Both the position numbers and the translations under genes were made by a program. A stretch of DNA of 49,885 bases, taken from positions 1-49,885 of the forward strand of contig CAYUKM010000001.1 in NCBI GenBank assembly GCA_964445255.1, read 5' to 3'. Positions 2,028-41,056 of the stretch are shown one piece after another. The notes beneath the pieces are model-generated. The model was not told where the DNA came from. It ran no database searches and was given only the letters and a program-made list of their open reading frames with translations. Each line of letters begins with the position of its first letter. Positions within the stretch are counted from its first letter, which is position 1. The stretch is from an uncultured Acidimicrobiales bacterium (GTDB lineage: Bacteria > Actinomycetota > Acidimicrobiia > Acidimicrobiales > SHLQ01).

Positions 2028-3422
2028 ATGAAGATGCGCATTGAATCGGACACCCTTGGAGACATTGAGGTCCCCGACGACAAGTACTGGGGTGCCCAGA
2101 CCGAACGCAGTCTGGAGAACTTCCCCATCGGCGGTCAGCAGATGCCGATCGAGCTCATCCGGGCATTTGCTCATCTCAAGAAGGCCGCGGCGCACGTCAA
2201 CGCAGAGACTGCTGGTTTAGATACAGACAAGGCCAACGCAATCACTCAGGTCTGCGACGAGATTCTCGCCGGCGACCTCGACGACCAGTTCCCTCTCGTC
2301 GTGTGGCAGACCGGTTCGGGCACGCAGAGCAACATGAACGTCAACGAGGTTGTTGCAAACCGCGCGACCGAGGTCATGGGCGGTGATTTCCGTACCGAGA
2401 AGCTCGTCAAGGCCAACGACGACGTCAACATGAGCCAAAGCTCAAACGACACCTTCCCGACCGCAATGCACATCGCGTCGTACGACAAGATCGTCACCGA
2501 GATGCTTCCGGGAGTGCAACAGCTCCGAGATACCTTGCACGCGAAGTCGACCGAGTTTATGACGGTCACAAAGACCGGGCGTACCCACACCATGGATGCG
2601 ACGCCGTTGACGCTCGGCCAGGAGTTCAGTGGCTACGTGACTCAACTCGACCGCGGAATGGCTGCCATTGGCGACTCGCTCGTTCGCCTGACCGAACTTG
2701 CGCTCGGCGGAACCGCGGTCGGCACTGGTTTGAACACTCCCCCGGGCTACTCCGAGAACGTTGCGGAAAAAATTGCCGAACAGACTGGCCATCCCTTCGT
2801 CACTGCGGAGAACAAGTTCGAGAGCTTGAGCGCGCACGACGCCATGGTCGAGATCAGTGGTTCTCTGCGCCGCCTTGCGGTCTCCTTGATGCACATCGGC
2901 AACAACATCCGGATGCTCGCTTCAGGTCCACGTACCTCGATTGCCGAGATCATTATTCCTGCGAACGAGCCAGGCAGCTCGATCATGCCGGGCAAGGTCA
3001 ACCCCACTCAGGTCGAGGCGTTGACGATGGTGTGCGTGCAGGTCATCGGCAACGACAGCGCCGTTGCGGTTGCCGGCACTCATGGCCAATTCCAGCTCAA
3101 CGTGTTCAAGCCAGTGATGGCCTACAACGTGCTCACCAGCGCACAACTGCTCGGCGACGCATGTCGGAGCTTCAACGATCGCCTAGCCGTCGGGATCGAA
3201 CCAAATCACGACCGCATCGAAGAACTCGTGAGCAAGAGCCTCATGCTGGTAACTGCGCTCAGCCCGAAGATTGGCTACTACAAGGCCGCCGAAATCGCGC
3301 AGACTGCCAACGACAACGGCACGACGCTTCGCGAAGAAGCAATCGCGCTCGGCTATCTCAGCGCCGAAGAATTCGACGACATTGTTGTTCCTGAGAAGAT
3401 GGTCGGCGACCTGCCGGGGTAG
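2028..3422 (+). CDS. fumC: Class II fumarate hydratase
   Basis: 464 aa. [16 protein letters not shown] signature (fumarase-type rather than aspartase-type) and the N-terminal [17 protein letters not shown]. Confidence 0.92.
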
Positions 3423-14930: not shown

Positions 14931-16424
14931 ATGAGCGCAACCGACGTGAAAGATTCCGTAGCACCGGGAGAGCCGGAGCTTTCCTCTTCGTTTGCCGAGC
15001 GCTTTCCTGAGCTGGGCGCCGAGTCGAAGGCTATCGATGCCCCAGCGCCCGAGCCGGTCATCGTCAACGACGCCCTCGCGGAGTTTCTCGGCATCGACGT
15101 CGATTGGCTCAACAGCGACGACGGCACCGCGTTTCTCGCGGGTATCAAATTGCCCGCTGGTTCAGCCCCGATCGCCATGGCCTACGCCGGACATCAGTTC
15201 GGCGGGTACTCCCCTGTGCTCGGTGATGGCAGGGCCATTCTCATCGGCGAGGTCGCCGATGCAGACGGAGAGCTAGAAGACATTCATCTCAAAGGGTCCG
15301 GCCGCACGCCGTTCTCTCGCGGAGGCGACGGGCTAGCCACGTTGCCAGCCATGTTGCGCGAATACCTCATGGCCGAAGCCATGCACGCACTGGCGGTCCC
15401 AACCTCGCGGGGCCTCGGCGTAGTGACGACGGGCTTGGGTGTCCGGCGCGAGAAGATCGAAGCCGGAGCCGTGCTCGCACGAGTGGCACGCAGCCACATA
15501 CGTGTGGGGACGTTCGAGTTCACCGCACGACGAGACCCCGAGCTTGTGCGCGAGCTTGTCGACTATTCACTTGAACGCCACTACCCAGAGCTTGCCGATG
15601 CCGAAGTCCCAGCGCTTGCATTGCTCGAAGCTGTGGCCAACGCTCAGGCGAAGCTCATTGCGAAATGGATGCTCTTGGGCTTTGTGCACGGCGTCATGAA
15701 CACCGACAACGTGCTTATCTCCGGCGAGACCATCGATTACGGGCCATGTGCGTTCCTTGAGACCCACGACCCGGCGACCGTCTTTAGTTCAATCGATCGC
15801 CATGGTCGTTATGCATTCGGCAATCAGCCCGTGATTGGCCAGTGGAACCTTGCCCGCCTCGCCGAAACGCTGCTACCGCTGATCGATGACGATGGCGATG
15901 AAGCCGTAGCGAAGGCGACTATTGTCCTCGAGTCTTTCCCAGGACTCCTCAAAGAACATTGGCTCGAAGGCATGGCCTCCAAGATCGGACTCGTGGGACA
16001 GCACGACCAAGCCCTGGGTGCATTGGCCAGCGAATTGGTTGAAATGATGACCCGCTCCGAGGCAGACCACACTTTGACCTTCCGAGCGCTCGCCAAGGTG
16101 CTACGAGGCGAAACTCCATCCGACTTTGCACTCGCGTCCGACAGCGCCTGGGAGAACTGGTCACAACGTTGGCAAGATGCCCTGGGCGATGCGGACAAGA
16201 CCGAAGTCGCTGCGGCAATGGACGCCGTCAACCCGGTGTACATCCCGAGGAATCATCTGGTCGAAGAGGCGCTTAGCGCCGCCGGCGAGGGAAATTTGGA
16301 GCCGTTTCAGCAACTACTCGACGTCACGACGTCACCGTACGTCGAACGTGACGGGCTGGAACGCTACGGTGAACCCGCTCCAACCGGATTCACCGAGAGT
16401 TACCAGACCTTCTGCGGCACCTGA
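14931..16424 (+). CDS. selO: SelO/YdiU-family protein adenylyltransferase (Cys form)
   Basis: 497 aa with GHQFGGYSPVLGDGRAILIGE, HGVMNTDN and the C-terminal TFCGT. Confidence 0.85.
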   Translation: MSATDVKDSVAPGEPELSSSFAERFPELGAESKAIDAPAPEPVIVNDALAEFLGIDVDWLNSDDGTAFLAGIKLPAGSAPIAMAYAGHQFGGYSPVLGDGRAILIGEVADADGELEDIHLKGSGRTPFSRGGDGLATLPAMLREYLMAEAMHALAVPTSRGLGVVTTGLGVRREKIEAGAVLARVARSHIRVGTFEFTARRDPELVRELVDYSLERHYPELADAEVPALALLEAVANAQAKLIAKWMLLGFVHGVMNTDNVLISGETIDYGPCAFLETHDPATVFSSIDRHGRYAFGNQPVIGQWNLARLAETLLPLIDDDGDEAVAKATIVLESFPGLLKEHWLEGMASKIGLVGQHDQALGALASELVEMMTRSEADHTLTFRALAKVLRGETPSDFALASDSAWENWSQRWQDALGDADKTEVAAAMDAVNPVYIPRNHLVEEALSAAGEGNLEPFQQLLDVTTSPYVERDGLERYGEPAPTGFTESYQTFCGT

Positions 16425-16437
16425 GCCGACAAACAAG

Positions 16438-18426
<1,989 letters not shown>

Positions 18427-21047: not shown

Positions 21048-23003
21048 CTAGATGAGCAGCGAATCGGTCGTTACCTCGACAAGCGATGGCCCGCGATGTT
21101 GGAGTGCAGCGTCGAAGGTCGACTTGAGATCGCCCAGCTCGGTGACCCGGAAACCTTTCACCCCACAGAGCTCCGCCATGGCCGCAAAATCTGGGTTCAC
21201 TAAGTGTGTCTCCCACACCTCCCATTCGGCCGTCCGCTGTTCCTTGGAGATCTTGCCGAGCTCGTTGTTGTTCATCACGATGTGGGTGATATTCATGTCG
21301 TACTTTGCGAGCGTCGTCAGTTCCATGGCGTACTGGCCGAAGCCGCCATCACCGCTGATGCTGACCACCTGGCGATTATCGCCGACGGCGGCCCACGCTC
21401 CCATTGCCGCGGGAAGCGCAAAACCAATCGAGCCGAGGTAGCCCGACATCAGAACGTCTTGACCGGCCTTCGATTCGAAATAGCGTCCGAACGCATAGGT
21501 ATTGTTGCCAACATCGATTGCGATCACCGCGTCGTCGTCGACACCTTCAGCTAGGGCAGCCATCACTGCGGCCGAGTTGATTCCCTTACCGTGGTCGTCG
21601 AGTTCGCGTCGCGCTTTTTCTTTGTGCCAGATCGCCCAGCGTTCTGCAAGCTCATCGCGCATATCGATGCAACTCCGCTCGCTTGGGAGTCCAGCCAACA
21701 TTTCCTTTGCCGTAACGGCAACGTGGCCTTGCAGCGGAAGGTCGACCGGATGGAACCGACCGAGCGCCATTGGATCGGTGTCGACCTGAATGACTGGCTT
21801 GTACTCGGCGATGCCGGTGTGGTTGGAGAAGCTTGCACCGAACACGACAATCAAATCGGACTCGTTCATAAACCAGCTCGCAACCGGTGTTCCTGAACGT
21901 CCAAGAACACCGCAGCCGATCGGTTCGTCGTCGCCGATGATGCCCTTTGCCTTGAACGTCGTCGCGATCGGCGCACCGATCTCTTCGCCCAACGCCCGCA
22001 CTTCGTCCATGTGGCCACGGGCACCGTCGCCAACGATGATGAGCGGGCGCTCCGAGGCCGCGAGCATATCTATTGCCCGGTCGAGTTCTGACTTGGGTGG
22101 CGAAATCTCGTTCAGGCCGGTGCGCCCGTCGGGCTTGCCGGCTTCGGTGTCTTCGTCGACGGGAAGGAATTGGACTTCGTCGGGGAAGATCAGGTGCGCC
22201 ACCTTGTTCTCGACGATGGCGGTCTTCATGGCAAGCGTCGCCAGCTCGGCGTGATTTGATCCAGCGTGCACGGTCTCACTGAACGCGGCAACTGCCGCAA
22301 AGGCGGCTTCAAGATCGGTGTCTTGGAACGCACCGCGGCCCTTTACCTTCGACGGGACTTGCCCACTCAACGCAATCACCGGCGCACGATCTTCTTTGGC
22401 GTCGAAGAGACCGGTGAGAAGGTTCGTCGAGCCAGGACCCGCAATGCCAAAACAAGCCGCTGGGATTCCGGTTAGCTTGCCATAGGCCTTTGCCGCAAAA
22501 GAGGCAGCGCCTTCGTGGCGAATACCGATGAAGGTCAGTGCTCCCCTCTCTTCAGCCTTGCGCATGGCGTCGGCGAGCCCCAGATTTGAATGACCGACCA
22601 TGCCGAACACGTGGGTCATGCCCCAGTTCACCATGGTGTCGACCATCACATCGGACACCGTTCGTTCGAGGGGCGGTTCGGGGGGAAGTGCTACCCAAAC
22701 CTCGGTCTCGCGTACCTCGGTCGTGAAGCATGCGGGAGCGTCGGAGAACCCGCCCGGGGGCTTTCCGTCGATTGGTGAGTAGTCATACCCGTGCCATGGG
22801 CAGCGCAGCCAACCGTTTTCGATCGATCCCTCACCGAGCGGACCTCCCTGGTGTGGGCAGGCGTTGTCGACGCAGCCCCATTGGCCTTCGTATTTGCTCA
22901 CGGCGAAGGTTCGACGACCAATAGCCACGGTGGTCACTCGACCTTCGTCGAGTTCATCGGTTCCGATCAACCGATGCCACTCCAGCTCGTTGTTGTTGCT
23001 CAT
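21048..23003 (-). CDS. Rieske [2Fe-2S] domain fused to a pyruvate-oxidase/acetolactate-synthase-type TPP enzyme
   Basis: N-terminal CPHQGGPL...CPWHGYDY (CxH..CxxH). This is followed by TPP_N (VFGMVGHSNLGLADA), a middle domain, and TPP_C with GDGGFGQYAMELTTLAKYDMNITHIVMNNN. ATG 23003 is preceded by GGAG. Confidence 0.75.
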   Translation of the reverse strand: MSNNNELEWHRLIGTDELDEGRVTTVAIGRRTFAVSKYEGQWGCVDNACPHQGGPLGEGSIENGWLRCPWHGYDYSPIDGKPPGGFSDAPACFTTEVRETEVWVALPPEPPLERTVSDVMVDTMVNWGMTHVFGMVGHSNLGLADAMRKAEERGALTFIGIRHEGAASFAAKAYGKLTGIPAACFGIAGPGSTNLLTGLFDAKEDRAPVIALSGQVPSKVKGRGAFQDTDLEAAFAAVAAFSETVHAGSNHAELATLAMKTAIVENKVAHLIFPDEVQFLPVDEDTEAGKPDGRTGLNEISPPKSELDRAIDMLAASERPLIIVGDGARGHMDEVRALGEEIGAPIATTFKAKGIIGDDEPIGCGVLGRSGTPVASWFMNESDLIVVFGASFSNHTGIAEYKPVIQVDTDPMALGRFHPVDLPLQGHVAVTAKEMLAGLPSERSCIDMRDELAERWAIWHKEKARRELDDHGKGINSAAVMAALAEGVDDDAVIAIDVGNNTYAFGRYFESKAGQDVLMSGYLGSIGFALPAAMGAWAAVGDNRQVVSISGDGGFGQYAMELTTLAKYDMNITHIVMNNNELGKISKEQRTAEWEVWETHLVNPDFAAMAELCGVKGFRVTELGDLKSTFDAALQHRGPSLVEVTTDSLLI

Positions 23004-23169
23004 GTGCTCCCCTGAAGGCTCTCTAAATGCAGGTAACAGCATGGCACATACCGGTTGCGGAACCCGCCACGCGGACGCCACCGACGAAAACGGGTGTCTC
23101 GCTAACGTGATCGTTGAGCACACCGCATAGGATCCATTACTCGGAAACGAGGGAAACGAGAGATTTCAC

Positions 23170-24834
23170 ATGCCCACGAATCGAGAGGTCGAGACACTGT
23201 TGCGAGGCCGAGAGCTCCTTGCTGAGTCTCGCTTGAACAAGGGGACCGCTTTCAGCGCGGACGAACGAATCCAGTTCGGGCTCGAAGGCCTCCTGCCCGA
23301 ACAAGTTGAGGATATTGACAAACAACTCGCACGTGCCCGGGTGGAATTCGATCGACTCCACAACGACTTGGAACGTCACGTTTTCCTTCGCGCCATCCAA
23401 GACTCCAACGAGGTGCTGTTCTACCGGTTCATCCAAGACAACCTGATCGACACCCTCCCCATCGTGTACACCCCGACCGTCGGTCTCGCCACCCAGGAAT
23501 ACAGCCGCATCTTCCGCCGCCCGCGTGGCCTATTCCTGACCTACCCACAGCGCGACCGTATGCAAGCGCAGATCGATGCCATCGACCTTGAGCCCGATGT
23601 GGTCGTGGTAACCGACGGCGAACGCATTCTGGGTCTCGGTGACCAAGGTGCTGGCGGAATGGCAATCCCTGTCGGAAAGCTCAGTCTCTACAGCGCGTTC
23701 GGCGGTATCGATCCGTCCAAGACGCTGCCGATCATGCTCGATGTCGGAACCAACAACCCCGACCTGCTCAACGATGAGTTCTACCTCGGTTGGCGTCACG
23801 AACGTATCGACGACGACGAGTACTTGTCGTTCGTCGAACAATTTGTGACGACGCTAAACAAGCGCTGCCCCACCGTGCTCTTGCAATGGGAAGACTTCGC
23901 CGAACGCAACGCCACGCGTCTGCTGCGCACCTACCGCGACCGGCTGCTGACATTCAACGACGACATCCAAGGAACCGCTGCAGTTGCTCTCGCCGCAATC
24001 TGGTCGGCGGTCCGCTCCAAGGACGCCAAGCTCTCGGACCAGGTCTTCTGTATCGCGGGTGCTGGATCCGCGGGCACCGGAATCGCTGGCATCATCCGCG
24101 ATGCCTTGGTTGCCGAAGGGGTCGAGAATCCTCTTGGCCACTTGTTCCTTCTTGATAGGGACGGCCTGATCCACGATGGCCGCGACGACCTGAAGCCACA
24201 TCAAGTGGACTTAGCGCAACCGTTTGCCGCGGTGGCCGACTGGGCCGGCCAGCCAAACGGCCTCGCTGAGGTCGTTTCACATTCGGGCGCGACCGTCCTC
24301 GTGGGCGTGACCGGTCAGCCGAACACCTTCACGAAACCCATCATTTCGTCGATGCTCGAAGCTACCGACAAGCCGATCGTGATGCCGCTGTCGAACCCGA
24401 CAAGCCGAGCCGAAGCCACCCCGGTCGACTTGTTCGACTGGACCGACGGAAACGTCATCGTGGCCACCGGAAGTCCCTTTGATGACGTCGAGTACAACGG
24501 AACAAAGCACCGTATCTCGCAGTCAAACAACGTCTATGTCTTCCCAGGGCTCGGCCTCGGTGCAATCGCAGCGAACGCGACCGCCGTCAGCGACAAGATG
24601 TTGATGACCGCGGCAGAGACCGTGTCAAAGCGCTCGTCGCGGACCGCTGTTGAAGCCGGCATCCTCCCAGATTTGGAAGATGTGCACGACCTCAGCGCAG
24701 AGATCGCCGCTGCGGTTGCACAGGTAGCTATCGAAGAAGGCCTGGCACCGCCGATGTCACCCGAGCAGATCGTCGAACGCATCGCCGAATACAGTTGGCT
24801 ACCGCAGTACCCGACCATCACGCCAGCAAGCTAG
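23170..24834 (+). CDS. NAD(P)-dependent malic enzyme
   Basis: 554 aa with VVVTDGERILGLGDQGAGGMAIPVGKLSLY and the dinucleotide site IAGAGSAGTGIA. Confidence 0.88.
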   Translation: MPTNREVETLLRGRELLAESRLNKGTAFSADERIQFGLEGLLPEQVEDIDKQLARARVEFDRLHNDLERHVFLRAIQDSNEVLFYRFIQDNLIDTLPIVYTPTVGLATQEYSRIFRRPRGLFLTYPQRDRMQAQIDAIDLEPDVVVVTDGERILGLGDQGAGGMAIPVGKLSLYSAFGGIDPSKTLPIMLDVGTNNPDLLNDEFYLGWRHERIDDDEYLSFVEQFVTTLNKRCPTVLLQWEDFAERNATRLLRTYRDRLLTFNDDIQGTAAVALAAIWSAVRSKDAKLSDQVFCIAGAGSAGTGIAGIIRDALVAEGVENPLGHLFLLDRDGLIHDGRDDLKPHQVDLAQPFAAVADWAGQPNGLAEVVSHSGATVLVGVTGQPNTFTKPIISSMLEATDKPIVMPLSNPTSRAEATPVDLFDWTDGNVIVATGSPFDDVEYNGTKHRISQSNNVYVFPGLGLGAIAANATAVSDKMLMTAAETVSKRSSRTAVEAGILPDLEDVHDLSAEIAAAVAQVAIEEGLAPPMSPEQIVERIAEYSWLPQYPTITPAS

Positions 24835-25318: not shown

Positions 25319-26707
25319 TTAGGAATGATCCCCGAGTTCGCCTATGTCCGCGACCATGTCGATGACCCGGCCTGCTTCAGCAATCACCTCATCGACCTGT
25401 TCGCCAGCGTGACCCAGATAGTTTTTCGGATCTAGCGCGTCGACCGCGTGTGGCGCTAGGTCTCGCACAACTTCATCGAACGTTGACCCGGTTGTGGCGA
25501 CCGTTTGCACCATGTCGGCAACCTTGTCGTGTGCTACTTGGCGCCCGAGCTCGCGTGCGAGCGACATCATGACCGCTTCGGCCATGATTGCGCCACCGGT
25601 CTTGCCAAGGTTTTCTTGCATTGCAGCGGTGTTAACTTCTAAACCTTCGATGAGTCGGCGCGCAGCATCTATGGCTCCACCGGCAACCGCGATCGAAGGT
25701 GCGACCGAATTCCACTCGAGTGCCCATGCAGCGGTTGCTCGATCGTGGTCGGCCATGGCGCCGTCAAGCGCTAGGTCGAGGTAGGAGCGGGTGAGTCGAC
25801 TTGCTCGCATCAACTGCTGGGAGAGGATCGGGTTGCGCTTTTGAGGCATTGTGCTCGACGTCCCGCCGCCGGCAATCCGGGCTTCGGCTAACTCGCCCAA
25901 CTCGGTTTGGGCGCTCAGAGCGACGTCATGACCAATCTTGGAGATCGAGGACGACACTTGGGCCGACCAAGCAACGACTTCAACAATGCGGTCACGGCCC
26001 GAGTGCCAAGTGATTAGCGGGTCACTGAGTTCGAGGATCTCGGCCATTGCCTTGCGGACGGCGAGGCCGTCGGGTGCGATCGAAGCAATGGTTCCGACAG
26101 CTCCACCGAACTGCACCGCTTCGACGCGCTGACGAAGCTGTGCAAGCCGCTCCATATGACGCAACAGCGGGCTGAGCCAACCCGCAACCCGATACCCAAA
26201 GGTGGTCGGAACGGCTTGTTGCATTTGGCTTCGGCCAGCCATGGGTGTGTCTCGGTATTTCGCGGCAAGCCTGGCAAGCGCCCGAACCAGCAACGCGAGA
26301 TCAACCATGATCTCGCTTAATGCCTCTCTGATCTGTAGCACCAGCGCCGTGTCCATGATGTCTTGGGTCGTGGCACCCCAATGGGCCCACTGTCCAAGAT
26401 CGTTCGGGACGACCTCGACGATTTGTTGGATCAACCCAACCACCGGGTAGCCAACAATGGTCATCTGGTCGGCGAGCCTCGTGAAGTCGAGATCGTCGAC
26501 CGTTACCTTTGCAATTGCAACTGCAGCTTCACGTGGGATGAGCCCGAGGTCGGCTTGGGCTGTGGCCAAGGCTGTCTCGACTTCGAGGTACCGCTCGATC
26601 AGGCAGCGTTCACCCAGGATAGAGCGCAACTCATCGGTGGTGTGCAAGACACCAGACACGTCAGAGTCAAGCGCTGAGAGTGCTTGACGGTGCAGGTGTT
26701 CTGACAT
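25319..26707 (-). CDS. Class II lyase (adenylosuccinate lyase / 3-carboxy-cis,cis-muconate cycloisomerase family)
   Basis: 462 aa with the GGTSSTMPQKRNP signature loop. The ATG directly abuts the TAG of the upstream TPP enzyme gene. Confidence 0.7.
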   Translation of the reverse strand: MSEHLHRQALSALDSDVSGVLHTTDELRSILGERCLIERYLEVETALATAQADLGLIPREAAVAIAKVTVDDLDFTRLADQMTIVGYPVVGLIQQIVEVVPNDLGQWAHWGATTQDIMDTALVLQIREALSEIMVDLALLVRALARLAAKYRDTPMAGRSQMQQAVPTTFGYRVAGWLSPLLRHMERLAQLRQRVEAVQFGGAVGTIASIAPDGLAVRKAMAEILELSDPLITWHSGRDRIVEVVAWSAQVSSSISKIGHDVALSAQTELGELAEARIAGGGTSSTMPQKRNPILSQQLMRASRLTRSYLDLALDGAMADHDRATAAWALEWNSVAPSIAVAGGAIDAARRLIEGLEVNTAAMQENLGKTGGAIMAEAVMMSLARELGRQVAHDKVADMVQTVATTGSTFDEVVRDLAPHAVDALDPKNYLGHAGEQVDEVIAEAGRVIDMVADIGELGDHS

Positions 26708-28372
26708 CTACGCTCCGACGACCGAGTTGCAGTCAATGGCCTTCATGGCGGCCATGAGCTTTGCATTTTCGCTGTAGTCCACCGGCACGTCGATCACGTG
26801 CACCCCGCCAGCATCGGCTGCCTTTTGCAACGCGTCGGCGAGGCCTGCGGCACTATCGACTCGCGTACCGGTCGAACCAAACGCTGTGGCGTAGGAAATG
26901 ATGTCCGGGTTGGTGAACTCAACCCCGTGGACGGCGTTGCCCATCGCTTCCTGTTTGAGTTGGATCATTCCGAGCGCGCCATCGTTGAAGATCACCACGG
27001 TGAGGTCGAGCCCGAGGCGCACCGCGGTCTCGATCTCCTGGCCGGTCATCATGAAACCACCGTCGCCGACGACAGCGACGACGCGGCGGTCGGGATACAC
27101 CAGCTTGGCTGCGATCGCGGCGGGCACGCCCGTGCCCATCGACCCCAACGCCGAGTCAACCAGAATGGTTCGAGGTGCCAGCGCCGGATAGTTGCGGGTC
27201 ATCCACAACTTATGGATGCCATTGTCCAAACTGATGATGTCTTCAGGACCGAGCGCCTTGCGCACGGTCTGCGCGACGTGCTGTGGCTTGACGATCCCGG
27301 GAGTTGGATCGGTGGGCTCCGCCATCATCGCGCCAACCGCGGCTTTCCGCAGCTTGGCGTAACCGTCGAGCTCCCACGATGCCGCCCCGCTGACGCGCTC
27401 GGTGAGCTCGATCAGAGAGTGCGCCATATCGCCGACCACCTGGTGCTGGGGGAACCAGATCGTGTCCGCGGTGGCGGGTGAGTCATGAATGTGGATCACC
27501 GTTCGAGCGTCGTCGGGCTTCATGATGAACGGCGATTTTTCGATCACGTTATGACCCACGCTCACCACAAGGTCGCTGTGTTGCACCGCGCAATGCGGGA
27601 TCCCCATTCCGGGCATTCCCGCGGAACCCAAGAACTGGTCGCTCATCTCGTCGCCGACACCCTTGCCCATCATCGTGCAAATGAAGGGGATACCGGTTGC
27701 GGACAGAAAGTTCCGCACCGCCGCTGGCACGGCTTGGCGAGCGTTCGCGCTGGCGCCAAGGAGCACCAATGGCCGCTTGGCTTCTTGCAACAGGGTTGCT
27801 GCCGTGGCCATCGATGCCTCCGTCGCCAGTGCCGGGTCAGCTCGACCGATCTCGAGCAACGGGTGGATTCCCGCTGGTTCGCCAGACACATCCACCGGCA
27901 ATTCGAGATGTACCGGACCTTGCGGATACTCGAGCGCGACGTGGATTGCTTCTGCGATCAGGCCTGGGAGCGCCGCGGCCGATGGGACCGACGCCGACAT
28001 CTTCGTGATGGGCGTCATGAGGTCGACGACATCGACCAGCTGATACTTGCCCTGCATATTGTCGAGAATTGGCTTTTGGCCCGTGAGCACCAACATCGGC
28101 GACTCGGCCAACCAGGCGTGAGCAACCGGCGTCGCCAGATTGGTAGCCCCCGCCCCGAGCGTCGACATGGCAACGGCGAGCCCGCCCGTGAGGTGGCCAT
28201 GGGCCGCAGCCATGAAACCGGCTGCGCCTTCGTGGCGGGTCAAAACGAAGCTCACCTGGTCGGAGTTCGCTACCGCTTCAACGAAGGGAAGGTTCTCATC
28301 ACCGGGCAGACCAAAGACGTACGAGACTCCCTCTTTTTCGAGGGCTTCGAGTAACTGCTGTGCTGTATTCAT
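26708..28372 (-). CDS. Acetolactate-synthase-like TPP-dependent enzyme
   Basis: N-terminal VSYVFGLPGDENLPF, and GDGGFMMTGQEIETAVRLGLDLTVVIFNDG (GDG..N TPP motif). The likely start ATG 28372 (MNTAQQLL) lies 4 nt after the RraA stop. Confidence 0.8.
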   Translation of the reverse strand: MNTAQQLLEALEKEGVSYVFGLPGDENLPFVEAVANSDQVSFVLTRHEGAAGFMAAAHGHLTGGLAVAMSTLGAGATNLATPVAHAWLAESPMLVLTGQKPILDNMQGKYQLVDVVDLMTPITKMSASVPSAAALPGLIAEAIHVALEYPQGPVHLELPVDVSGEPAGIHPLLEIGRADPALATEASMATAATLLQEAKRPLVLLGASANARQAVPAAVRNFLSATGIPFICTMMGKGVGDEMSDQFLGSAGMPGMGIPHCAVQHSDLVVSVGHNVIEKSPFIMKPDDARTVIHIHDSPATADTIWFPQHQVVGDMAHSLIELTERVSGAASWELDGYAKLRKAAVGAMMAEPTDPTPGIVKPQHVAQTVRKALGPEDIISLDNGIHKLWMTRNYPALAPRTILVDSALGSMGTGVPAAIAAKLVYPDRRVVAVVGDGGFMMTGQEIETAVRLGLDLTVVIFNDGALGMIQLKQEAMGNAVHGVEFTNPDIISYATAFGSTGTRVDSAAGLADALQKAADAGGVHVIDVPVDYSENAKLMAAMKAIDCNSVVGA

Positions 28373-28376
28373 CGGC

Positions 28377-29045
28377 TCAGATCTCCTGGCTTCCACTAAC
28401 AATGACCTCGCCGGGGTCCTCGGCTCGAATCTTCTCGAGCATCTGATGACCCATCTCTTTGATCATCCGAGCGGTCTGGAGGATCTCGTCGGCATTTGAT
28501 GCTGGGATGACCGCGGCACCCGTCGTGTCAGCGAAGATGATGTCGCCGGGAACGACCGTCACCCCGGCGACCTCGACGGGAACATCGGTGACGTAGGGCT
28601 GAATTTCGTTTCCGCCAGCGCGGACCGCTTCACCTCGACAGTAAAAGGCACCCGGAAACTCGGCGAGTTCATCGAAGTCACGCAGTCGACCGTCACACAG
28701 GACTCCAGCGAGGCCGTGGTTGGTGACCCGGGACAGCTTCGTCGACCCACCCAGCGATGCTCCATGGTGACCAGAGGACGACATGACCAAGACTCGGCCC
28801 CCCATCTCGCGCTCACCGAGCGAACGATAGATCGCTGGCCCGAGGCTGTGTTTGTGAAGATCCATCAGGTCGCGGCGCACCGGCAAGAAACCAATGGTCA
28901 CCGCAGGCCCAAACAACACTTTGGATGGGTCCGGAGAAACTAAATCAACGATGTGAGACCGGTGGGCGAACGCCTTGGTCATCGCGTCGATGATGTCGGC
29001 AGTCGCGAGCCCTTCGATAAGGGCTCGGTCTGGTGTCTCGTACAT
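28377..29045 (-). CDS. RraA-family protein (HMG/CHA-aldolase / oxaloacetate decarboxylase-like)
   Basis: GRVLVMSSSGHHGASLGGSTKLSRVTNHGLAGVLCDGRLRD is the RraA-like core. ATG 29045 is preceded by GGGAGA. Confidence 0.65.
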   Translation of the reverse strand: MYETPDRALIEGLATADIIDAMTKAFAHRSHIVDLVSPDPSKVLFGPAVTIGFLPVRRDLMDLHKHSLGPAIYRSLGEREMGGRVLVMSSSGHHGASLGGSTKLSRVTNHGLAGVLCDGRLRDFDELAEFPGAFYCRGEAVRAGGNEIQPYVTDVPVEVAGVTVVPGDIIFADTTGAAVIPASNADEILQTARMIKEMGHQMLEKIRAEDPGEVIVSGSQEI

Positions 29046-29165
29046 GGATCTCCCGAGTTGGTTACTGAGAACGAAGAGTTGACGCCGCGGCGCCAATGAG
29101 ATGGTACAGGTTTGGGTGCTCACTCCGAAGGCTCGTTTTGCACCTCGGATGCCCGGTCGACTTGC

Positions 29166-31238
29166 TCACGCGTTGTTCGCGATCACCCGCTTGACCGCGG
29201 CCGAAACATCGTTCGTCGTAAAGCCAAAAAGCTCTTCGAGCATCGGTACCGGTCCGGACTTACCGAAGCGGTCCATGCCGATCACTTCGCCGCTCTCGCC
29301 CGCGTAGCGGTGCCACCCTTGGCTCGCACCTTCTTCGACCGTGACCCGAGCACCAATATCGCTCGGGAGAACACTCTGTCGGTACTGCTCGTCCTGCTCG
29401 TCGAAGATTTCCCATGACGCAAGGTTCACCACGCGAACGTGGATCCCATCGTTAGCGAGAGCCTCACGGGTAGCCATCGCCAGGTGCACCTCGGCGCCGG
29501 TCGCGATGATGATCGCATCGGGTGGGGCGCCATTGGGTGGGTCGGCGAGCACGTAGCCGCCACGTGCGACCCCACTCGCGGCAGCAAACTTCGTCCGGTC
29601 GATGACGGGAACCTTTTGATGCGCGATCGAAATGATCGTCGGACCATCTGTTCGCTCCAGCGCGAGCTTCCACGCTTCGACGGTCTCGTTCGCATCGGCC
29701 GGGCGGACGAGAGTGAGATTTGGCATTGCCCGGTAGCTGGCGAGATGGTCGATGGGTTGGTGGGTGGGACCGTCAGAGCCGACCCGGAACGAGTCGTTGG
29801 TCAACACGTGCACTACCGGTAGACCCATCAGTGCCGAGAGCCTAATGGCTCCGCGGCCGTATTCGCTAAACACCAAGTAGGTCGAGTCGTACGTGCGAAT
29901 ATCGGAGAGGGAAAGGCCGTTTGCGATTGCAGACATTGCATGTTCACGCGTGCCGTAGTGCATATTGCGGCCCCACGGAGTTTCAGGCTGATTGCCACCT
30001 GCTTCGGGGAACCACATGAGCGTCATCGACTTCATGGCCGTGTCTGAGGCTCCTCCCAGGAGCCAGGGAAACTTCGGCCCAATCGCGTTGATCGAGGCAA
30101 AGGACGCCTCACGCCCTGCGACCATTTCGCTGGGGTCATCCCAGCTAGGCAGAGCCGAGTCCCAGCCGTCAGGGAGTTTCCGGTTACGCATCTTGGCGAT
30201 GTGACCCGCGAACTCGGGCTGCGCTTTTGTGAACGCGTCCCACTTGGTGTTCCATTCAGTTCGCGCTTGTTGTCCGCGTCCGTAGAACTTGGTTTTTACA
30301 TGTTCGCGGACCTCGTCAGGAATCAAGAAGTCGCTGTCGGTGGGCCAGCCATAGTTGGCTTTGGTGGCCGCGGTTTCTTCGAGACCCATAGGAATGCCGT
30401 GCATGGGCTGGGTACCAGCCTTGTTCGGCGAACCCCAACCAATGACGCTGGTCATGTCGATAAATGTCGGGCGATCTTGCTCGGCGCGAAACGCTGCGAA
30501 CGCGGCGCGGATGGCGTCGAGGTCATTGGCATCGGCAACCTTGATCACGTTCCAGCCGAGCGCAGCGAACCGGGCGCTGACGTCTTCGGTAAACGCGAGG
30601 TTGGTCGAGCCTTCGATCGAGATGTTGTTGTTGTCGTAGATCCAGCACAAGTTGGAGAGCTTCTGGTGGCCGGCATAAGAGGCCGCCTCGTACGCGATGC
30701 CTTCCATGACGTCGCCGTCGCCGCCCAGTGCGATGACTTCGTGATCGAACACTCCTTCATTGTCCACATCGAACGCGGCCGCCTTCCAGCGTTGAGCAAC
30801 GGCCATGCCCACCGAATTGGCAAGGCCTTGGCCGAGCGGTCCCGTCGACGTCTCAACGCCAGCGAGAACACCGTGCTCGGGGTGGCCGGTCGCTCGACCC
30901 TTGCCTTGTCGGTACTGCCGAAGCTCGTCCACGGTCATGACCGGTTCGCCGACCGGTCCGGTTGCTGGATCGACCGAACGCACATCGGCCAACAACAGCA
31001 TGCTGTAGAGCAAAATCCCGGCGTGTCCGACCGACAGCACGAAGCGGTCCCGATTTTCCCAGAGCGGATCAAGCGGGTCGTAGCGAAGGTGCTCGGTGTA
31101 GATCGTGTAGAGCGTGGGAGCGAGTGCCATTGCGGTCCCCGGGTATCCCGAGCCGGCATTCTCTACCGAGTCGATCGACAGGGTTCGTAGCGTGGTGATC
31201 GCGAGCGCGTCAAGATCCTCGGTGTCTTCAGTTCCCAC
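29166..31238 (-). CDS. tkt: Transketolase
   Basis: 690 aa with SVGHAGILLYS, GDGDVMEGIAYEA and EDGPTHQPI-like (SDGPTHQPIDHL) motifs. Confidence 0.9.
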   Translation of the reverse strand: MGTEDTEDLDALAITTLRTLSIDSVENAGSGYPGTAMALAPTLYTIYTEHLRYDPLDPLWENRDRFVLSVGHAGILLYSMLLLADVRSVDPATGPVGEPVMTVDELRQYRQGKGRATGHPEHGVLAGVETSTGPLGQGLANSVGMAVAQRWKAAAFDVDNEGVFDHEVIALGGDGDVMEGIAYEAASYAGHQKLSNLCWIYDNNNISIEGSTNLAFTEDVSARFAALGWNVIKVADANDLDAIRAAFAAFRAEQDRPTFIDMTSVIGWGSPNKAGTQPMHGIPMGLEETAATKANYGWPTDSDFLIPDEVREHVKTKFYGRGQQARTEWNTKWDAFTKAQPEFAGHIAKMRNRKLPDGWDSALPSWDDPSEMVAGREASFASINAIGPKFPWLLGGASDTAMKSMTLMWFPEAGGNQPETPWGRNMHYGTREHAMSAIANGLSLSDIRTYDSTYLVFSEYGRGAIRLSALMGLPVVHVLTNDSFRVGSDGPTHQPIDHLASYRAMPNLTLVRPADANETVEAWKLALERTDGPTIISIAHQKVPVIDRTKFAAASGVARGGYVLADPPNGAPPDAIIIATGAEVHLAMATREALANDGIHVRVVNLASWEIFDEQDEQYRQSVLPSDIGARVTVEEGASQGWHRYAGESGEVIGMDRFGKSGPVPMLEELFGFTTNDVSAAVKRVIANNA

Positions 31239-31241
31239 GAT

Positions 31242-31916
31242 TTACTCCACTCCTTGCGTCAGCAACCTTGCCAGCGCACCAACGTCGGGTGCGACGAGCT
31301 CGGGAATGCGATCGTGACTCGCACGTGCCGCGCCTGGACGGTCGATGAACGCGGCGTTCGCGCCGGCGAGCAGTGCCCCGTTCACGTCCCAGTCGTGAGC
31401 GGCGACCATCGTGATGGCGTGGATTGGCGTGTCGAGCTGTTCGGCCGCGTAGTTGTACGTATCGGGGTGCGGCTTGAAGCGTTCTACGGTTTCCACCGAA
31501 AGCACCATGTCGAAATACGAGTGCAGCCCGGCGAACTTGAGTTGTGCATGCGCGACATCGAGTCGTGAGTTGGTGAGTGTCGCCAAACGGAACCCGTACT
31601 GTTTGAGCGCGGCGAGTCCGTCAGCGACGTCGGGGTGAGCGGGCAGTTCCGACATCGACCCGATGAGCGCCTGTGCGTCTTGGGTGCTCACCGGTTTTCC
31701 GACACGGTTGGCACTGGTCTGGAGCGCACCGACAGCCAGTTCGTCGAAGGAGCGATAGTCGCCGGTAACGCTCACCTCAAGGGAGTAGCGCAACAGCATC
31801 CCGAACCATTCACCCAACAAGTCAGCGTCGCCAAACGTGGAGGTGAATGCCCCATCGAGCGCCTTGACGTCGAGCAACGTTTCATTGACGTCGAAGAGCA
31901 ATACATCAGCAACCAT
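31242..31916 (-). CDS. HAD-superfamily hydrolase, type II haloacid-dehalogenase-like (motif I is D-V-N-E-T, not DxDxT)
   Basis: LLFDVNETLLD plus LATLTNS. The second catalytic Asp of HAD phosphatases is absent. Confidence 0.65.
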   Translation of the reverse strand: MVADVLLFDVNETLLDVKALDGAFTSTFGDADLLGEWFGMLLRYSLEVSVTGDYRSFDELAVGALQTSANRVGKPVSTQDAQALIGSMSELPAHPDVADGLAALKQYGFRLATLTNSRLDVAHAQLKFAGLHSYFDMVLSVETVERFKPHPDTYNYAAEQLDTPIHAITMVAAHDWDVNGALLAGANAAFIDRPGAARASHDRIPELVAPDVGALARLLTQGVE

Positions 31917-31930
31917 AATTTCCTTCTTAT

Positions 31931-32572
31931 CTATGTTTCCCGTGCGGCGCTAAGGGCCGCGACGGCGTTCGTAATTGCGCCGTAGTCGCCGTTGGCCAAC
32001 GCATCTGGCGGAACCGATGCCATCGTACCCACCGCGGTTGCTCCGGCTTGGAGCCAGGTTTGGACGTCGTCGGGTCCGATTGGGCCGTTTGCAATGATCC
32101 GGCTCCACGGCCGGGGGCTCTTGACGGCTTGGATGAACATCGGGTTCATGGCCGGGTACAGCTTGACGAACTCCACGCCATGACGTTCTGCCTCGGCAAT
32201 TTCGGTGATGGTCATCGTTCCCGGTAAGTACGGGACCTTTCGACGGTTGCACAAGTCCGCCGTTTCGGCCACGAAGATCGGTGACACGATGAACTCCGCG
32301 CCAATGGAAACAAACAGGGCGGCGGTCGCCGCGTCTTCTACCGAGCCAACCCCAATCACCATGTCGGGATGGTTTTGATCCGCGTGACGCCGAACGGCCT
32401 CGAAGACCTTGGGCGCGAACAGAATCCTGTTCGTGAACTCGATGACAACGCCCCCGCCCGCAGCGATGGCGTCGACGACTTGGATCGCTACCTCGGGGTC
32501 ACCGTGATGGAACAAGTGCATGACCTGTTCTTTGGCGATGGTATTGAGGACGTGTAGTCGATCGTGGGTCAC
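31931..32572 (-). CDS. KDPG / 4-hydroxy-2-oxoglutarate aldolase family
   Basis: 213 aa with VIEFTNR, LPGTMTITE and the Schiff-base context GVEFVKLYPA. GTG start. Confidence 0.7.
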   Translation of the reverse strand: MTHDRLHVLNTIAKEQVMHLFHHGDPEVAIQVVDAIAAGGGVVIEFTNRILFAPKVFEAVRRHADQNHPDMVIGVGSVEDAATAALFVSIGAEFIVSPIFVAETADLCNRRKVPYLPGTMTITEIAEAERHGVEFVKLYPAMNPMFIQAVKSPRPWSRIIANGPIGPDDVQTWLQAGATAVGTMASVPPDALANGDYGAITNAVAALSAARET

Positions 32573-38237: not shown

Positions 38238-40058
38238 CTAGGCGTTGACGTCCTCGTCGTCGACGATCTCGGCATCGATGACGTCGTCGTCGCCTTCGAC
38301 AGCTCCGTCGCCCGAGTCTGAGCTTGCAGCGTTGTCGTAGAGGTACTGGGTGTACTTCTCCGCAGCCGAGCGCACATCTTCGGCGGCCGACTTCATCGCT
38401 TCGAGATCTTCAGCCTCAGTAGCGGCGGCCAGCTGATCGACTGCAGCCTGCAGGGTCGAACGCTCTGCCGACGAGTCGTCGGCATCATTTAGCTGCCGGC
38501 GAGCCTGATACAGCGTGCTGTCAGCCTCGTTACGAGTCTCAGCGTCGGCTCGGCGACGCTTATCATCCTCGGCGTGGGCTGCGGCATCGTTAACCATGCG
38601 CTCGATGTCGTCTTCTGACAGCGATGACTGACCGGTGATCGTGATCGACTGCTCCTTGCCAGTGCCCTTGTCGGTGGCAGAGACGTGCACGATGCCGTTG
38701 GCATCGATGTCGAAGCTGACCTCGATCTGAGGCATACCGCGAGGAGCAGGTGGCAGATCAACCAGCTGGAACTTGCCCAGCGTCTTGTTGTGCTGCGCCA
38801 TTTCGCGCTCGCCCTGAAGTACATGGACGTCGACCGAAGGCTGGTTGTCTTCAGCGGTGCTGAAGAGCTCCGAACGCTTGGTCGGGATCGTGGTGTTGCG
38901 CTCGATGAGCGTTGTCATGACACCGCCCATGGTCTCGATGCCGAGTGACAGAGGCGTGACATCTAGCAGAATGACGTCGTTCACATCGCCTCGCAGGACT
39001 CCAGCCTGAACAGCAGCACCCATGGCAACGACCTCGTCGGGGTTGACGCCCTTGTGAGGCTCTTCTCCCGACAGGGACTCGACCAGCTCGGAAATGGCGG
39101 GCATACGGGTAGAACCACCGACCAGAATGACATGGTCGAGGTCACCCTTTTCGACCTTGGCATCTGCGAGGGCCTGCTCGAAGGGATCCTTCAACTTGGC
39201 GACCAAGTCGGCCGTCAGGTCCTCGAACTTCGAACGCGTGAGCTCGAGATCGAGGTGCTTAGGGCCTGCATCGGTAGCGGTGATGAAGGGAAGATTGATC
39301 CGCGTCGTCTGTACCTGTGATAGCTCGATCTTGGCTGCTTCAGCGGCTTCCTTCAGCCGCTGCATGACCATGGCATCGCCCGACAGGTCGACTCCCTCGG
39401 TGTCCTTGAACGACTTGACGATCCAGTCGATAATCGCCTGGTCCCAGTCGTCGCCGCCCAAATGGGTATCGCCGTGGGTCGAGAGCACCTCGAACACGCC
39501 GTCGCCCATCGACAGAACCGAAACGTCGAATGTGCCGCCACCGAGGTCGAAGACCAGGATGGTCTGATCGCTATCGTCCTCACTGGCAATGCCATAGGCA
39601 AGGGCAGCAGAGGTGGGCTCGTTGATAATTCGCAGAACCTCAAGACCAGCAATGGCGCCGGCCTCCTTGGTAGCGGTTCGCTGGGCATCGTCGAAATAGG
39701 CAGGAACGGTAATGACCGCCTGAGTCACATCTTCTCCGAGGAATCCTTCAGCGTCTCGCTTCAGCTTCTGCAGAATTCGAGCCGAGATCTCCTGGGCGGT
39801 GTAGTCGGTACCGTCGATTCCCAGAGTCCAATCGGTACCCGCGTGGCGCTTGACCGAGCGAATAGTGCGCTCAGGGTTGGTGATTGCCTGTCGCTTGGCC
39901 ACCTCGCCCACAAGAACCTCGCCATCACGAGCGAACGCGACCACCGATGGAGTGGTGCGAACGCCTTCGGCGTTGGCGATTACCTCGGGCTCTCCGCCCG
40001 TGATCGTGGCGACAATAGAATTTGTCGTGCCGAGGTCGATTCCTACTGCTTTACTCAT
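38238..40058 (-). CDS. dnaK: Molecular chaperone DnaK (Hsp70)
   Basis: [14 protein letters not shown]..., [10 protein letters not shown], acidic C-terminus. ATG 40058 is preceded by GGAGA. The longer track ORF is an upstream extension. Confidence 0.93.
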
Positions 40059-40114
40059 ATCAGTTCTCCAGTCTCGTTGTTTTTCTTCATTGTTGATTTG
40101 TTGTCGAGGGGTAT

Positions 40115-40140
40115 AACGCAGACAGGCGAATCTGATTCCC
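40115..40140 (-). promoter_or_regulatory. SigH/SigR-class promoter GGGAAT-N17-GTT upstream of dnaK
   Basis: Minus strand reads GGGAAT cagattcgcctgtctgc GTTA, with the same spacing and the same cGTT as the hsp20 promoter. It lies about 57 nt upstream of the ATG. Confidence 0.45.
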
Positions 40141-40154
40141 ATATTGGCAACAAA

Positions 40155-40175
40155 CTTGAGCGGACTCATATCAAC
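40155..40175. promoter_or_regulatory. Degenerate HAIR-like repeat CTTGAGC-N7-TATCAAC
   Basis: 10 of 14 matches to CTTGAGT-N7-ACTCAAG, just upstream of the -35 element. Confidence 0.25.
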
Positions 40176-40318
40176 TTCGCCAACAGGGGTACACAGATCC
40201 CACAAAACGGCTCACGCGTAACGCCCAATAGAGTCAAAACACTTCCGCCAAAATCCGCGAAGAACCCGATAGGACGTGCACGGATCCCCCCACGCCAACT
40301 AGGTAGAGTCAGGGACTT

Positions 40319-41056
40319 ATGAACGCGATTTCAAAAGTCCACGCCCACCTCGCTGCAACGAGAATCAACCTTCACCGGCTCGCCGCCTACGTGATTGCGC
40401 CCGCCCGATATCGATTGACCGAACGCTTCGGTTTACGAGCAACCGAGGGCGGATTCGGTACCCCGCCCTTCGGAGAGCAACGTCGCATTCGAGTTGCCGG
40501 TCTGGATCTGATCGATGAACTTGCGGGCGAACAACGCATTGCACCAATCACGACCTTGAACGCAGCCGCTGAGTTCCTCGGCGAACCGGTCGATACCGAA
40601 ACGGCTGCCGAGCATGACTCCCCCGCGGCCGGCGACCTCGATGAAGACCTCGGCATTGACCTTGAGTCCTCCAATTACCTGGGTCGTTGGTTCAATATGG
40701 CCTTCGATGCACTCAACGCCGTTCGCGAAGATGACGCGTCGGTCGATGCCTCTGAGGCTCAGCTTTGGCCAGGCCACTTCGATCCCGCGATCGAGATGGG
40801 TGACGAAAACCATCGCGGCAGTTACGGCGCCTCACCGGGCGACGACGCCATTGCTGAGCCTTACCTGTACCTGAGCATCTGGTGGCCTGATCGTCTGTCG
40901 CTCGACACCGACGACCCATTCTGGAACGCTACGGCATTCACCGGGGCGGTCTTGAAAGTGTCAGATTTTCCTGCCGATGCTGACCCGGTTGAGGTTGCAG
41001 CGAAGTTTTGGCGAGATGCCCGAGACATGCTGGAGAACGCGGAATCGAGCTCGTGA
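40319..41056 (+). CDS. Hypothetical protein (245 aa)
   Basis: Coding-like ORF. Its stop overlaps the start of the aldo/keto reductase gene (GTGATGA). Confidence 0.5.
   Translation: MNAISKVHAHLAATRINLHRLAAYVIAPARYRLTERFGLRATEGGFGTPPFGEQRRIRVAGLDLIDELAGEQRIAPITTLNAAAEFLGEPVDTETAAEHDSPAAGDLDEDLGIDLESSNYLGRWFNMAFDALNAVREDDASVDASEAQLWPGHFDPAIEMGDENHRGSYGASPGDDAIAEPYLYLSIWWPDRLSLDTDDPFWNATAFTGAVLKVSDFPADADPVEVAAKFWRDARDMLENAESSS

Follow-up and report, generated by a model that had tools for sequence, protein, structure and literature searches.

The window analysed here is a stretch of 49,885 nucleotides from the genome of an uncultured Acidimicrobiales bacterium, and it carries on its minus strand a gene in which a Rieske [2Fe-2S] domain is fused to a thiamine diphosphate (ThDP) enzyme of the pyruvate oxidase type. 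The fusion is a genuine gene and not an assembly artefact, and homologues with the same architecture occur in more than ten phyla. The known enzymes POX and PoxB dispose of two electrons to O2 or, after lipid activation, to a membrane quinone. For the fusion protein we consider it probable, on comparative grounds, that it is a POX-clade oxidative decarboxylase of 2-oxo acids, with pyruvate as the probable substrate, and that its electrons exit through the fused [2Fe-2S] domain. New in this work are a tree of the ThDP cores, a correlation between the presence of an iron carrier and the absence of a membrane tail, the mapping of the R264 and K584 positions of the active site, statistics on partner genes, and a negative outcome as to a link with the glyoxylate shunt, in this genome and in 86 loci.

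The fusion gene and its distribution

The gene at 21048..23003 consists of a single unbroken open reading frame (ORF) of 651 aa in which a Rieske domain is followed by TPP_N, TPP_M and TPP_C domains, as seen in the ORF listing, the translation and the Pfam matches, and all four Pfam domains score far above their curated gathering cut-offs. An earlier reading made from the DNA letters alone, referred to below as the original prediction, had described the same ORF, with a Rieske motif running into a three-domain TPP enzyme, and it is borne out by Pfam and by the motifs CPHQGGPL, CPWHGYDY, GDGG and NNN. The features of the gene are as follows, where pLDDT denotes the predicted local distance difference test of an AlphaFold model and FAD flavin adenine dinucleotide:

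21048..23003, minus strand: Rieske-ThDP fusion gene (P0001), 651 aa, stop codon within the coordinates (ORF, Pfam, start evidence)
22686..22982, minus strand: Rieske [2Fe-2S] ferredoxin-type domain, residues 8-106 (Pfam PF00355 at residues 8-81, E 3.9e-16; pLDDT 88-96)
22851..22859, minus strand: first cluster-ligand box C49-P-H51, in CPHQGGPL, invariant in 83 homologues
22791..22802, minus strand: second cluster-ligand box C68-P-W-H71, in CPWHGYDY, invariant in 83 homologues
22662..22691, minus strand: linker ALPPEPPLER, residues 105-114, joining the Rieske and ThDP parts (continuous frame; pLDDT 93-94)
22314..22661, minus strand: TPP_enzyme_N (Pyr) domain, residues 115-230, with the cofactor-activating Glu164 at 22512..22514 and F226-Q227 (Pfam, alignment)
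21702..22085, minus strand: TPP_enzyme_M domain, presumed FAD-binding, residues 307-434, with the invariant R369 at 21897..21899 (Pfam, alignment)
21072..21515, minus strand: TPP_enzyme_C (PP) domain, residues 497-644, with GDGG (D552) and N579, followed by 7 residues up to the C-terminus of the protein (Pfam)
21252..21254, minus strand: Lys584, in the motif LGKISKEQR, at the position of Phe465 of PoxB and Phe479 of Lactobacillus plantarum POX (LpPOX; alignment)

The minus-strand frame is open over 21048..23123, and the 651 aa are counted from an ATG at 23003. A Shine-Dalgarno-like element, GGGGAG, lies 6 nt 5' of this ATG and the N-termini of homologues coincide with it; on these two grounds the start was assigned to ATG 23003 and a longer version beginning with a GTG at 23123 was ruled out. 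The translated minus strand contains no frame change or stop near 22690, where the two parts meet, and the uninterrupted reading claimed for this region by the original prediction holds. The linker ALPPEPPLER is in register across the 83 homologues, which derive from independent assemblies, and it was modelled at a pLDDT of 93-94. An assembly join or frameshift is thus ruled out by the continuous frame, the identical architecture in independent assemblies and the confidently modelled linker. At one other locus (L100; G275:C1:726631-727448) the Rieske and ThDP parts are found in two overlapping frames, with a frameshift inside the end of the Rieske domain, and this reflects either a sequencing error or a decaying copy.

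The fusion proved to be widespread. The best 120 whole-protein matches carry the same four domains at 69-96% identity, apart from one shortened record of 521 aa that lacks TPP_C. When proteins about as long as the fusion were searched with scoring on the Rieske part alone, 7,923 clusters were obtained at E <= 0.001, fusion homologues being counted as clusters at 90% identity, and the 120 of these that were listed all contain Rieske and TPP domains, shortened records aside; a search of representatives at 50% identity gave 212 clusters at E <= 1e-30, mostly fragments. Scanning one genome per species yielded at least 596 related loci, the best 80 of which are all full-length fusions with 57-73% identity. 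These 80 loci belong to Acidimicrobiia, Thermoleophilia, Nitrospirales, Acidobacteriota, Gemmatimonadota, Myxococcota, Bacteroidota, Planctomycetota, Alpha- and Gammaproteobacteria, Poribacteria and Cyanobacteria, more than ten phyla overall, and they include the cultured Acaryochloris marina MBIC11017. Within the phylum of the window the distribution is patchy: the fusion occurs in about 16 of 401 evenly sampled genomes and in none of the approximately 20 listed genomes of the same order in that sample. The source genome, a 3.05-Mb assembly that is 91% complete, carries a single copy.

Database names for these proteins are generic ('TPP-binding protein', 'pyruvate oxidase', 'Rieske domain-containing protein') and a full-text literature search found no study of a Rieske-ThDP fusion, in agreement with the suggestion of the original prediction that the architecture had not been characterised biochemically. 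The same source had allowed that the architecture might turn out to be both common and already assigned; the first part applies, since the fusion is present in hundreds of species and its clusters number in the thousands, while the second does not, given that the names are only generic.

Active site, carrier domain and membrane tail

The ThDP part is best placed as a POX/PoxB-clade enzyme that is a member of neither curated family. It shows the Pyr-middle-PP domain order, the activating Glu and the GDG-x(24-27)-N motif of the ThDP superfamily branch that includes POX and acetolactate synthase (ALS). Among NCBIfam models, PRK08611, PRK06457, PRK09124 and PRK06546 (pyruvate oxidase/dehydrogenase) lead at 310-386 bits and score above all ALS models, the best large-subunit model of which reached 281.7 bits against a cut-off of 866. 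The POX-type scores also stay below their own curated cut-offs, with 385.7 against 742 bits for PRK08611, 314 against 792 for PRK09124, 309.9 against 893 for PRK06546 and 298.4 against 637.85 for TIGR02720. The placement outside both families follows from these scores, together with the absence of a membrane tail and of the Phe residue that bridges ThDP and FAD in the known enzymes.

Structural comparison gave a similar picture. The best match in a sequence search of the PDB was E. coli PoxB (3EY9, E 4e-63), and C. glutamicum pyruvate:quinone oxidoreductase (PQO) and L. plantarum POX were also found. An AlphaFold model built from the alignment of 83 sequences was predicted with a pLDDT of 92.9 and a predicted template modelling score (pTM) of 0.91, the linker not being of low confidence, and Foldseek placed the proteolytically activated delta23-PoxB (3EYA), PQO (9EV5/6) and L. 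plantarum POX at the top. Since these matches cover at most about 550 columns of the fusion protein, no solved structure combines the Rieske and ThDP parts.

Residue conservation was judged on 83-87 fusion proteins from more than ten phyla, among which C49, H51, C68, H71, Glu164, F226-Q227, R369, V498, D552, N579 and E588 are invariant. The active-site set of L. plantarum POX (F121, Q122, R264, V394, I480 and E483) has conserved equivalents in F226, Q227, R369, V498, I585 and E588. The alignment of R369 with R264 was verified in register through the V265A variant chain, and E. coli PoxB carries Leu (L253) at this position. The middle domain, which aligns best with that of L. plantarum POX, is among the most conserved parts of the protein (TTFKxKG, GRSGTPxASWxMNExD, GASFxNHTG and QxDxDP); a GxG follows its first strand, and the closest relatives are all FAD enzymes. 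This conservation is consistent with a bound dinucleotide, although it constitutes no test of FAD binding. There is some support for the decarboxylation of a small 2-oxo acid in a pocket like that of L. plantarum POX, and pyruvate is the best guess at the substrate because of the pocket conservation and a weak link to malic enzyme, considered below.

The two ligand boxes of the Rieske domain, C49-P-H51 and C68-P-W-H71, are separated by 16 residues. Loss of cluster ligands in homologues, which could have undermined the original prediction, was checked, and the four ligands are invariant in 83 homologues across phyla. The closest solved relatives of the domain are the oxygenase ferredoxins CarAc, naphthalene dioxygenase (NDO) ferredoxin and T4moC. 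In high-potential Rieske proteins of the bc1/b6f type, extra cysteines in both boxes form a disulfide; the boxes CPHQGG and CPWHG of the fusion protein lack such cysteines, of the CxHxGC...CxCH type. On account of both features the domain may be read as a shuttle of the low-potential type. Some family members, of about 756 aa, carry a tandem pair of Rieske domains, which would suit an electron wire.

The case for the fused domain as a putative electron outlet rests most firmly on how the carrier relates to the opposite end of the protein. The C-terminal amphipathic peptide of PoxB, which binds the membrane and mediates lipid activation, is absent: the fusion protein comes to its end at the point where it aligns with PoxB residue 526-532. 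Beyond the catalytic core there are 0 residues in the fusion protein, as against 24-40, including an 'IPPxI' tail, in E. coli PoxB and in unfused enzymes of two other genomes (G190 and G025). A second family shows the same arrangement with a different carrier. In a protein of genome G320 (L098:540-2372), a rubredoxin domain (PF00301, E 1.7e-9) is N-terminal to a tail-less core of 37% identity, and this rubredoxin-fused family comprises at least 177 clusters of about 585 aa (proteins P0304-P0423) from Methanobacterium, Dehalococcoidales and other anaerobes. One of its members, P0422 (802 aa), has further small iron-sulfur domains.

In a maximum likelihood tree of the ThDP cores the Rieske clade is supported at 100/100 and the rubredoxin clade at 99/99, and the two are joined at 85/74, apart from the tailed enzymes; the tree has 40 rows, including four outgroup rows, two with long branches, and support for the join is only moderate. 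An N-terminal iron carrier and an absent tail go together in every sequence examined, the partial exceptions being three rubredoxin proteins with 2-18 extra residues. The fused carrier would appear to stand at the evolutionary place of the C-terminal membrane anchor of the unfused relatives. The electron outlet put forward in the original prediction has accordingly gained comparative support from the invariant ligands and POX residues, the missing tail and the rubredoxin clade, and electron transfer through it is what we infer from them.

The following scheme can be proposed. The protein would be a soluble POX/PoxB-clade enzyme with ThDP, and probably FAD, and would catalyse the oxidative decarboxylation of a small 2-oxo acid, pyruvate being the most likely one. 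From the hydroxyethyl-ThDP intermediate two electrons would pass to the flavin of the middle domain and would then leave singly through the enzyme's own N-terminal [2Fe-2S] domain of the low-potential Rieske-ferredoxin type. From there they would reach a separate protein acceptor, rather than passing directly to a membrane quinone, the route of PoxB and PQO, or to O2, the route of lactobacillal POX; candidates are a conserved protein of about 240 aa, a Ferric_reduct-Rieske membrane protein where present, a Rieske-GltS enzyme (all described below) or a general respiratory carrier. What this scheme says of FAD binding, of the path and direction of the electrons, and of substrate, acceptor and product (acetate or acetyl phosphate) is putative.

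Several observations weigh against it. The aromatic residue expected between the cofactors is missing: 85 of the 87 fusion proteins have Lys, within the motif LGKISKEQ, where PoxB (F465) and LpPOX (F479) have the Phe that bridges ThDP and FAD, so the step from ThDP to the flavin, if it exists, would differ from that of the known enzymes. Every NCBIfam score falls far under its curated cut-off, and substrate and product are not transferable by homology. The AlphaFold model is of a monomer, whereas the relatives are tetramers. Finally, across the 86 gene neighbourhoods and the 401 sampled genomes considered below, no neighbour is universally adjacent or co-occurring and no acceptor is singled out.

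As regards the product, R369 matches the Arg of the phosphate-dependent L. plantarum POX that PoxB lacks. In the source genome an acetate kinase and a PduL-type phosphotransacylase (PTAC, PF06130) form a fusion in one frame of 602 aa (G000:C91:3282-5090; L104), and neither a classical Pta (PF01515) nor a phosphoketolase was found in this 91%-complete genome. Acetyl phosphate could therefore be used by the cell, which does not discriminate between the two products. The idea of an orphan acetate kinase fed by acetyl phosphate from the fusion enzyme was dropped, since the kinase is fused to the phosphotransacylase. A link to the glyoxylate shunt was not seen either: the 91%-complete genome yielded no isocitrate lyase, and no homologue of its malate synthase lies beside the fusion in the 86 loci.

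Neighbouring genes and alternative readings

Gene neighbourhoods were compared by clustering all ORFs in 86 loci, comprising 80 species genomes, 5 metagenome contigs and the window. No conserved oxygenase partner was found near the fusion in these loci. The genes that recur, or that lie beside the fusion gene in the window, are listed here:

G000:C41:10559-12175 (L012:1501-3126), L009:4350-5984 and L006:6365-8004, no strand given: Rieske-GltS fusion genes, the first being the source genome copy on contig C41
40319..41056, plus strand: homologue (P0303) of the protein of about 240 aa, 17 kb from the fusion in the window
L004:9994-10710, L007:8059-8781 and L083:9049-9894, no strand given: further members of this family of about 240-290 aa (motif WPxHFD...GxSPGD...EPYxY..W)
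L009:8680-10530, no strand given, and also L066, L077, L087, L088, L093, L094 and L095: Ferric_reduct-Rieske protein (ORF clustering of loci)
23170..24834, plus strand: NAD(P) malic enzyme (Pfam malic and Malic_M), a neighbour in this lineage only and not a conserved partner
23004..23169: divergent intergenic spacer of 166 nt between the fusion gene and the malic enzyme gene (ORF coordinates)

A gene for a Rieske-GltS-like protein, in which a Rieske domain is combined with the flavin mononucleotide (FMN) domain of glutamate synthase, lies directly upstream of the fusion gene and co-oriented with it in 29 of the 86 loci, from many phyla. The protein has kept a C-x5-C-x4-C-P motif, the [3Fe-4S] motif of GltS. 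At one locus (L071:8360-11938) a single open frame of 1,193 aa encodes the complete ThDP enzyme along with a Rieske domain and a Glu_synthase segment, and may be a fusion of two usually adjacent genes or result from a stop codon lost in assembly. Such findings raise the possibility that the ThDP enzyme works in series or in parallel with this FMN/[3Fe-4S] flavoenzyme. In one variant the GltS-like enzyme would oxidise an amino acid and so make a 2-oxo acid (e.g. 2-oxoglutarate from glutamate) that the ThDP enzyme decarboxylates, both feeding a common acceptor through their Rieske domains; in the other the ThDP enzyme would feed electrons to a reductive reaction of the GltS-like enzyme. The source genome also carries the Rieske-GltS gene, and K584 and R369 could bind a second carboxylate. 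However, the two genes are on different contigs in that genome, the pocket residues match those of the L. plantarum pyruvate enzyme, and in the 401-genome sample both fusions occur together in only 3 genomes; the ThDP fusion is present by itself in 13 more (in one case frame-split) and the GltS fusion by itself in 4 more. Neither fusion needs the other, and an obligate pairing is ruled out by these differing phyletic patterns. We regard this alternative as tentative and, of the rivals to the proposed scheme, the one that fares best.

The protein of about 240-290 aa adjoins the fusion, co-oriented, in 29 of the 86 loci, with 21 close homologues and 8 distant ones sharing WPxHFD...GxxPGD...PYxY. 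In the 401-genome sample it is present in 10 of the 16 genomes with the fusion and in 16 of the 385 others, an enrichment that is indicative only because related genomes are not independent. It has no sequence match in Pfam, NCBIfam or the PDB. Its AlphaFold model has a pLDDT of 96.2 and a pTM of 0.92, and Foldseek found no neighbour for it in the PDB (best E 0.6, TM 0.15). Elsewhere in the window, at 39462..40322 on the plus strand, is an ORF matching Pfam NAD-GH (PF10712) that is antisense to dnaK (38238..40205, minus strand) and is most likely a spurious antisense frame.

Eight of the 86 loci encode, near the fusion, a membrane Ferric_reduct-Rieske protein, which is always accompanied by a protein of about 250 aa with conserved cysteines. 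It has a membrane domain of the di-haem b type and, at its C-terminal end, a Rieske domain with ligand boxes (CQHQNGPLGEG...CPWHG) very similar to the ones in the ThDP fusion, and it may be a membrane acceptor. Its gene was not found in the 91%-complete source genome, where the other candidate partners are dispersed, the homologue of the 240-aa protein lying at 40319..41056 and the Rieske-GltS gene on contig C41.

These partners suggest, tentatively, a wider reading in which the Rieske-ThDP enzyme would be a node of a hitherto undescribed 'Rieske-wired' network for electron transfer. Rieske-headed dehydrogenases, both POX-like and GltS-like, would take electrons from 2-oxo acids and amino acids and hand them on to dedicated acceptors, possibly the Ferric_reduct-Rieske protein and/or the 240-aa protein, bypassing NAD(P)H and free ferredoxin, with the rubredoxin clade as an anaerobic counterpart. 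We offer this as a speculative extension of the proposal of an oxidative decarboxylase with its own outlet, and hold it with distinctly less confidence.

Somewhat less likely than a partnership with the GltS-like enzyme is the view that the enzyme is dedicated to pyruvate from the neighbouring malic enzyme, within a fumarate-malate-pyruvate-acetyl unit under shared divergent control. The divergent malic enzyme of the original prediction is there, and the gap is exactly 166 nt. Its shared control region was not recovered: neither a sigma-70-like site nor an inverted repeat or other shared regulatory element, promoter- or operator-like, was detected in the spacer. In favour of this view, malic enzyme adjoins the fusion gene in 3 of the 86 loci and the active site resembles that of L. 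plantarum POX, a pyruvate enzyme. The three layouts differ, however, being divergent in the window, upstream on the same strand in L007 and downstream on the same strand in L084; by a rough estimate the count is above chance (about 0.1 expected), yet far from a conserved module, with 83 loci lacking an adjacent malic enzyme. Comparison of the window with L007 shows 84% identity for the fusion proteins but just 55% for the malic enzymes. The fumC gene, which had also been assigned to this unit, is present at 2028..3422 (Lyase_1 and FumaraseC_C), separated from the fusion gene by about 19 kb and many unrelated genes; a nearer Lyase_1 gene at 25319..26707 is, by its Pfam matches, adenylosuccinate-lyase-like and not fumC. 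As a general feature the proposed module is not supported.

The nearer Lyase_1 gene belongs to a co-oriented run next to the malic enzyme (25319..32572, minus strand). This run also encodes a second TPP_N/M/C enzyme of 564 aa, which is unfused, as well as an RraA-like aldolase, a transketolase, a HAD hydrolase and a KDPG/KHG aldolase, and it looks like a catabolic cluster for sugar acids or 2-oxo acids. Within a few kb of the fusion gene the window also encodes a DUF255/thioredoxin-like protein of 662 aa (16438..18426, minus strand) and a SelO protein adenylyltransferase (14931..16424, plus strand), with no link seen to the fusion.

We think it improbable, finally, that the protein acts without redox chemistry as a ThDP carboligase or lyase, in the manner of acetohydroxyacid synthase (AHAS) or glyoxylate carboligase (Gcl), with a vestigial flavin and with a Rieske domain that has a structural role or senses redox state or oxygen and is no electron outlet: the Lys at the bridging position, the redox-inactive FAD for which AHAS and Gcl are precedents, and the AHAS structures found as close neighbours by Foldseek would fit this, but the ALS and Gcl models all score below those of the POX/PoxB family, the L. 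plantarum POX pocket equivalents are conserved, the four cluster ligands are invariant across phyla, and the independent fusion of rubredoxin at the same place, the tandem Rieske variants and the neighbouring Rieske proteins all point to electron transfer.

If an oxidative decarboxylase with a built-in outlet is correct, a large clade, with 57-73% identity across phyla, would have swapped a membrane anchor for a one-electron iron-sulfur carrier of its own, a third solution to the disposal of two electrons in ThDP-flavin enzymes. It would also constitute an oxygen-tolerant, flavin-based counterpart of pyruvate:ferredoxin oxidoreductase (PFOR) among abundant bacteria of the sea, of soils and of sponges, and also in a cyanobacterium available in culture, and annotations as 'acetolactate synthase' or 'pyruvate oxidase' in metabolic models of Acidimicrobiia and other groups would need revision. 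Moreover, the Lys at the position of the bridging Phe would provide a natural test of the role of that Phe in electron transfer.

Comparison with known systems

The fusion protein has the same three-domain ThDP/FAD fold as E. coli PoxB and C. glutamicum PQO (EC 1.2.5.1; 3EY9/3EYA and 9EV3-9EV6), with TM values of 0.90-0.92 and about 27% identity, and the cofactor Glu, the FQ pair, the Val of the V-conformation, GDG...N and the equivalent of E469 are all conserved. Unlike these enzymes, it has an N-terminal Rieske domain and no C-terminal amphipathic peptide, and relative to PoxB, F465 is changed to Lys and L253 to Arg. With the POX enzymes of L. plantarum and Aerococcus (EC 1.2.3.3; 1POX, 4FEE and 1V5E) it shares the lack of a PoxB-type membrane tail; the best-scoring NCBIfam model is PRK08611, a 'pyruvate oxidase', and the middle domain aligns best with that of LpPOX. 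It differs from LpPOX in the replacement of F479 by Lys and in the fused Rieske domain, which would imply a protein acceptor rather than O2.

A similar design is seen in the rubredoxin-fused POX-like enzymes, such as that of Methanobacterium lacus, annotated as 'acetolactate synthase', which combine an N-terminal one-electron iron carrier with a tail-less core of about 37% identity. They differ in carrying rubredoxin and in having Met, not Lys, at the position of PoxB F465, and they occur mostly in anaerobes and archaea.

Among soluble shuttles, the fused Rieske domain most resembles the oxygenase ferredoxins CarAc, naphthalene dioxygenase ferredoxin and T4moC, and fusions of the phthalate dioxygenase reductase type follow the same logic, in that a flavin takes up two electrons and a [2Fe-2S] cluster passes them on singly. 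In contrast to the oxygenase systems, the electron source would be a 2-oxo acid via ThDP and not NAD(P)H. In outline the proposed reaction is also like that of PFOR and related 2-oxoacid:ferredoxin oxidoreductases (OFOR), for one of which the source genome has an alpha-subunit gene on contig C177. These enzymes also couple ThDP-dependent oxidative decarboxylation of 2-oxo acids to the exit of electrons through iron-sulfur clusters, but PFOR does so with an unrelated domain organisation, [4Fe-4S] clusters and CoA, and with no flavin.

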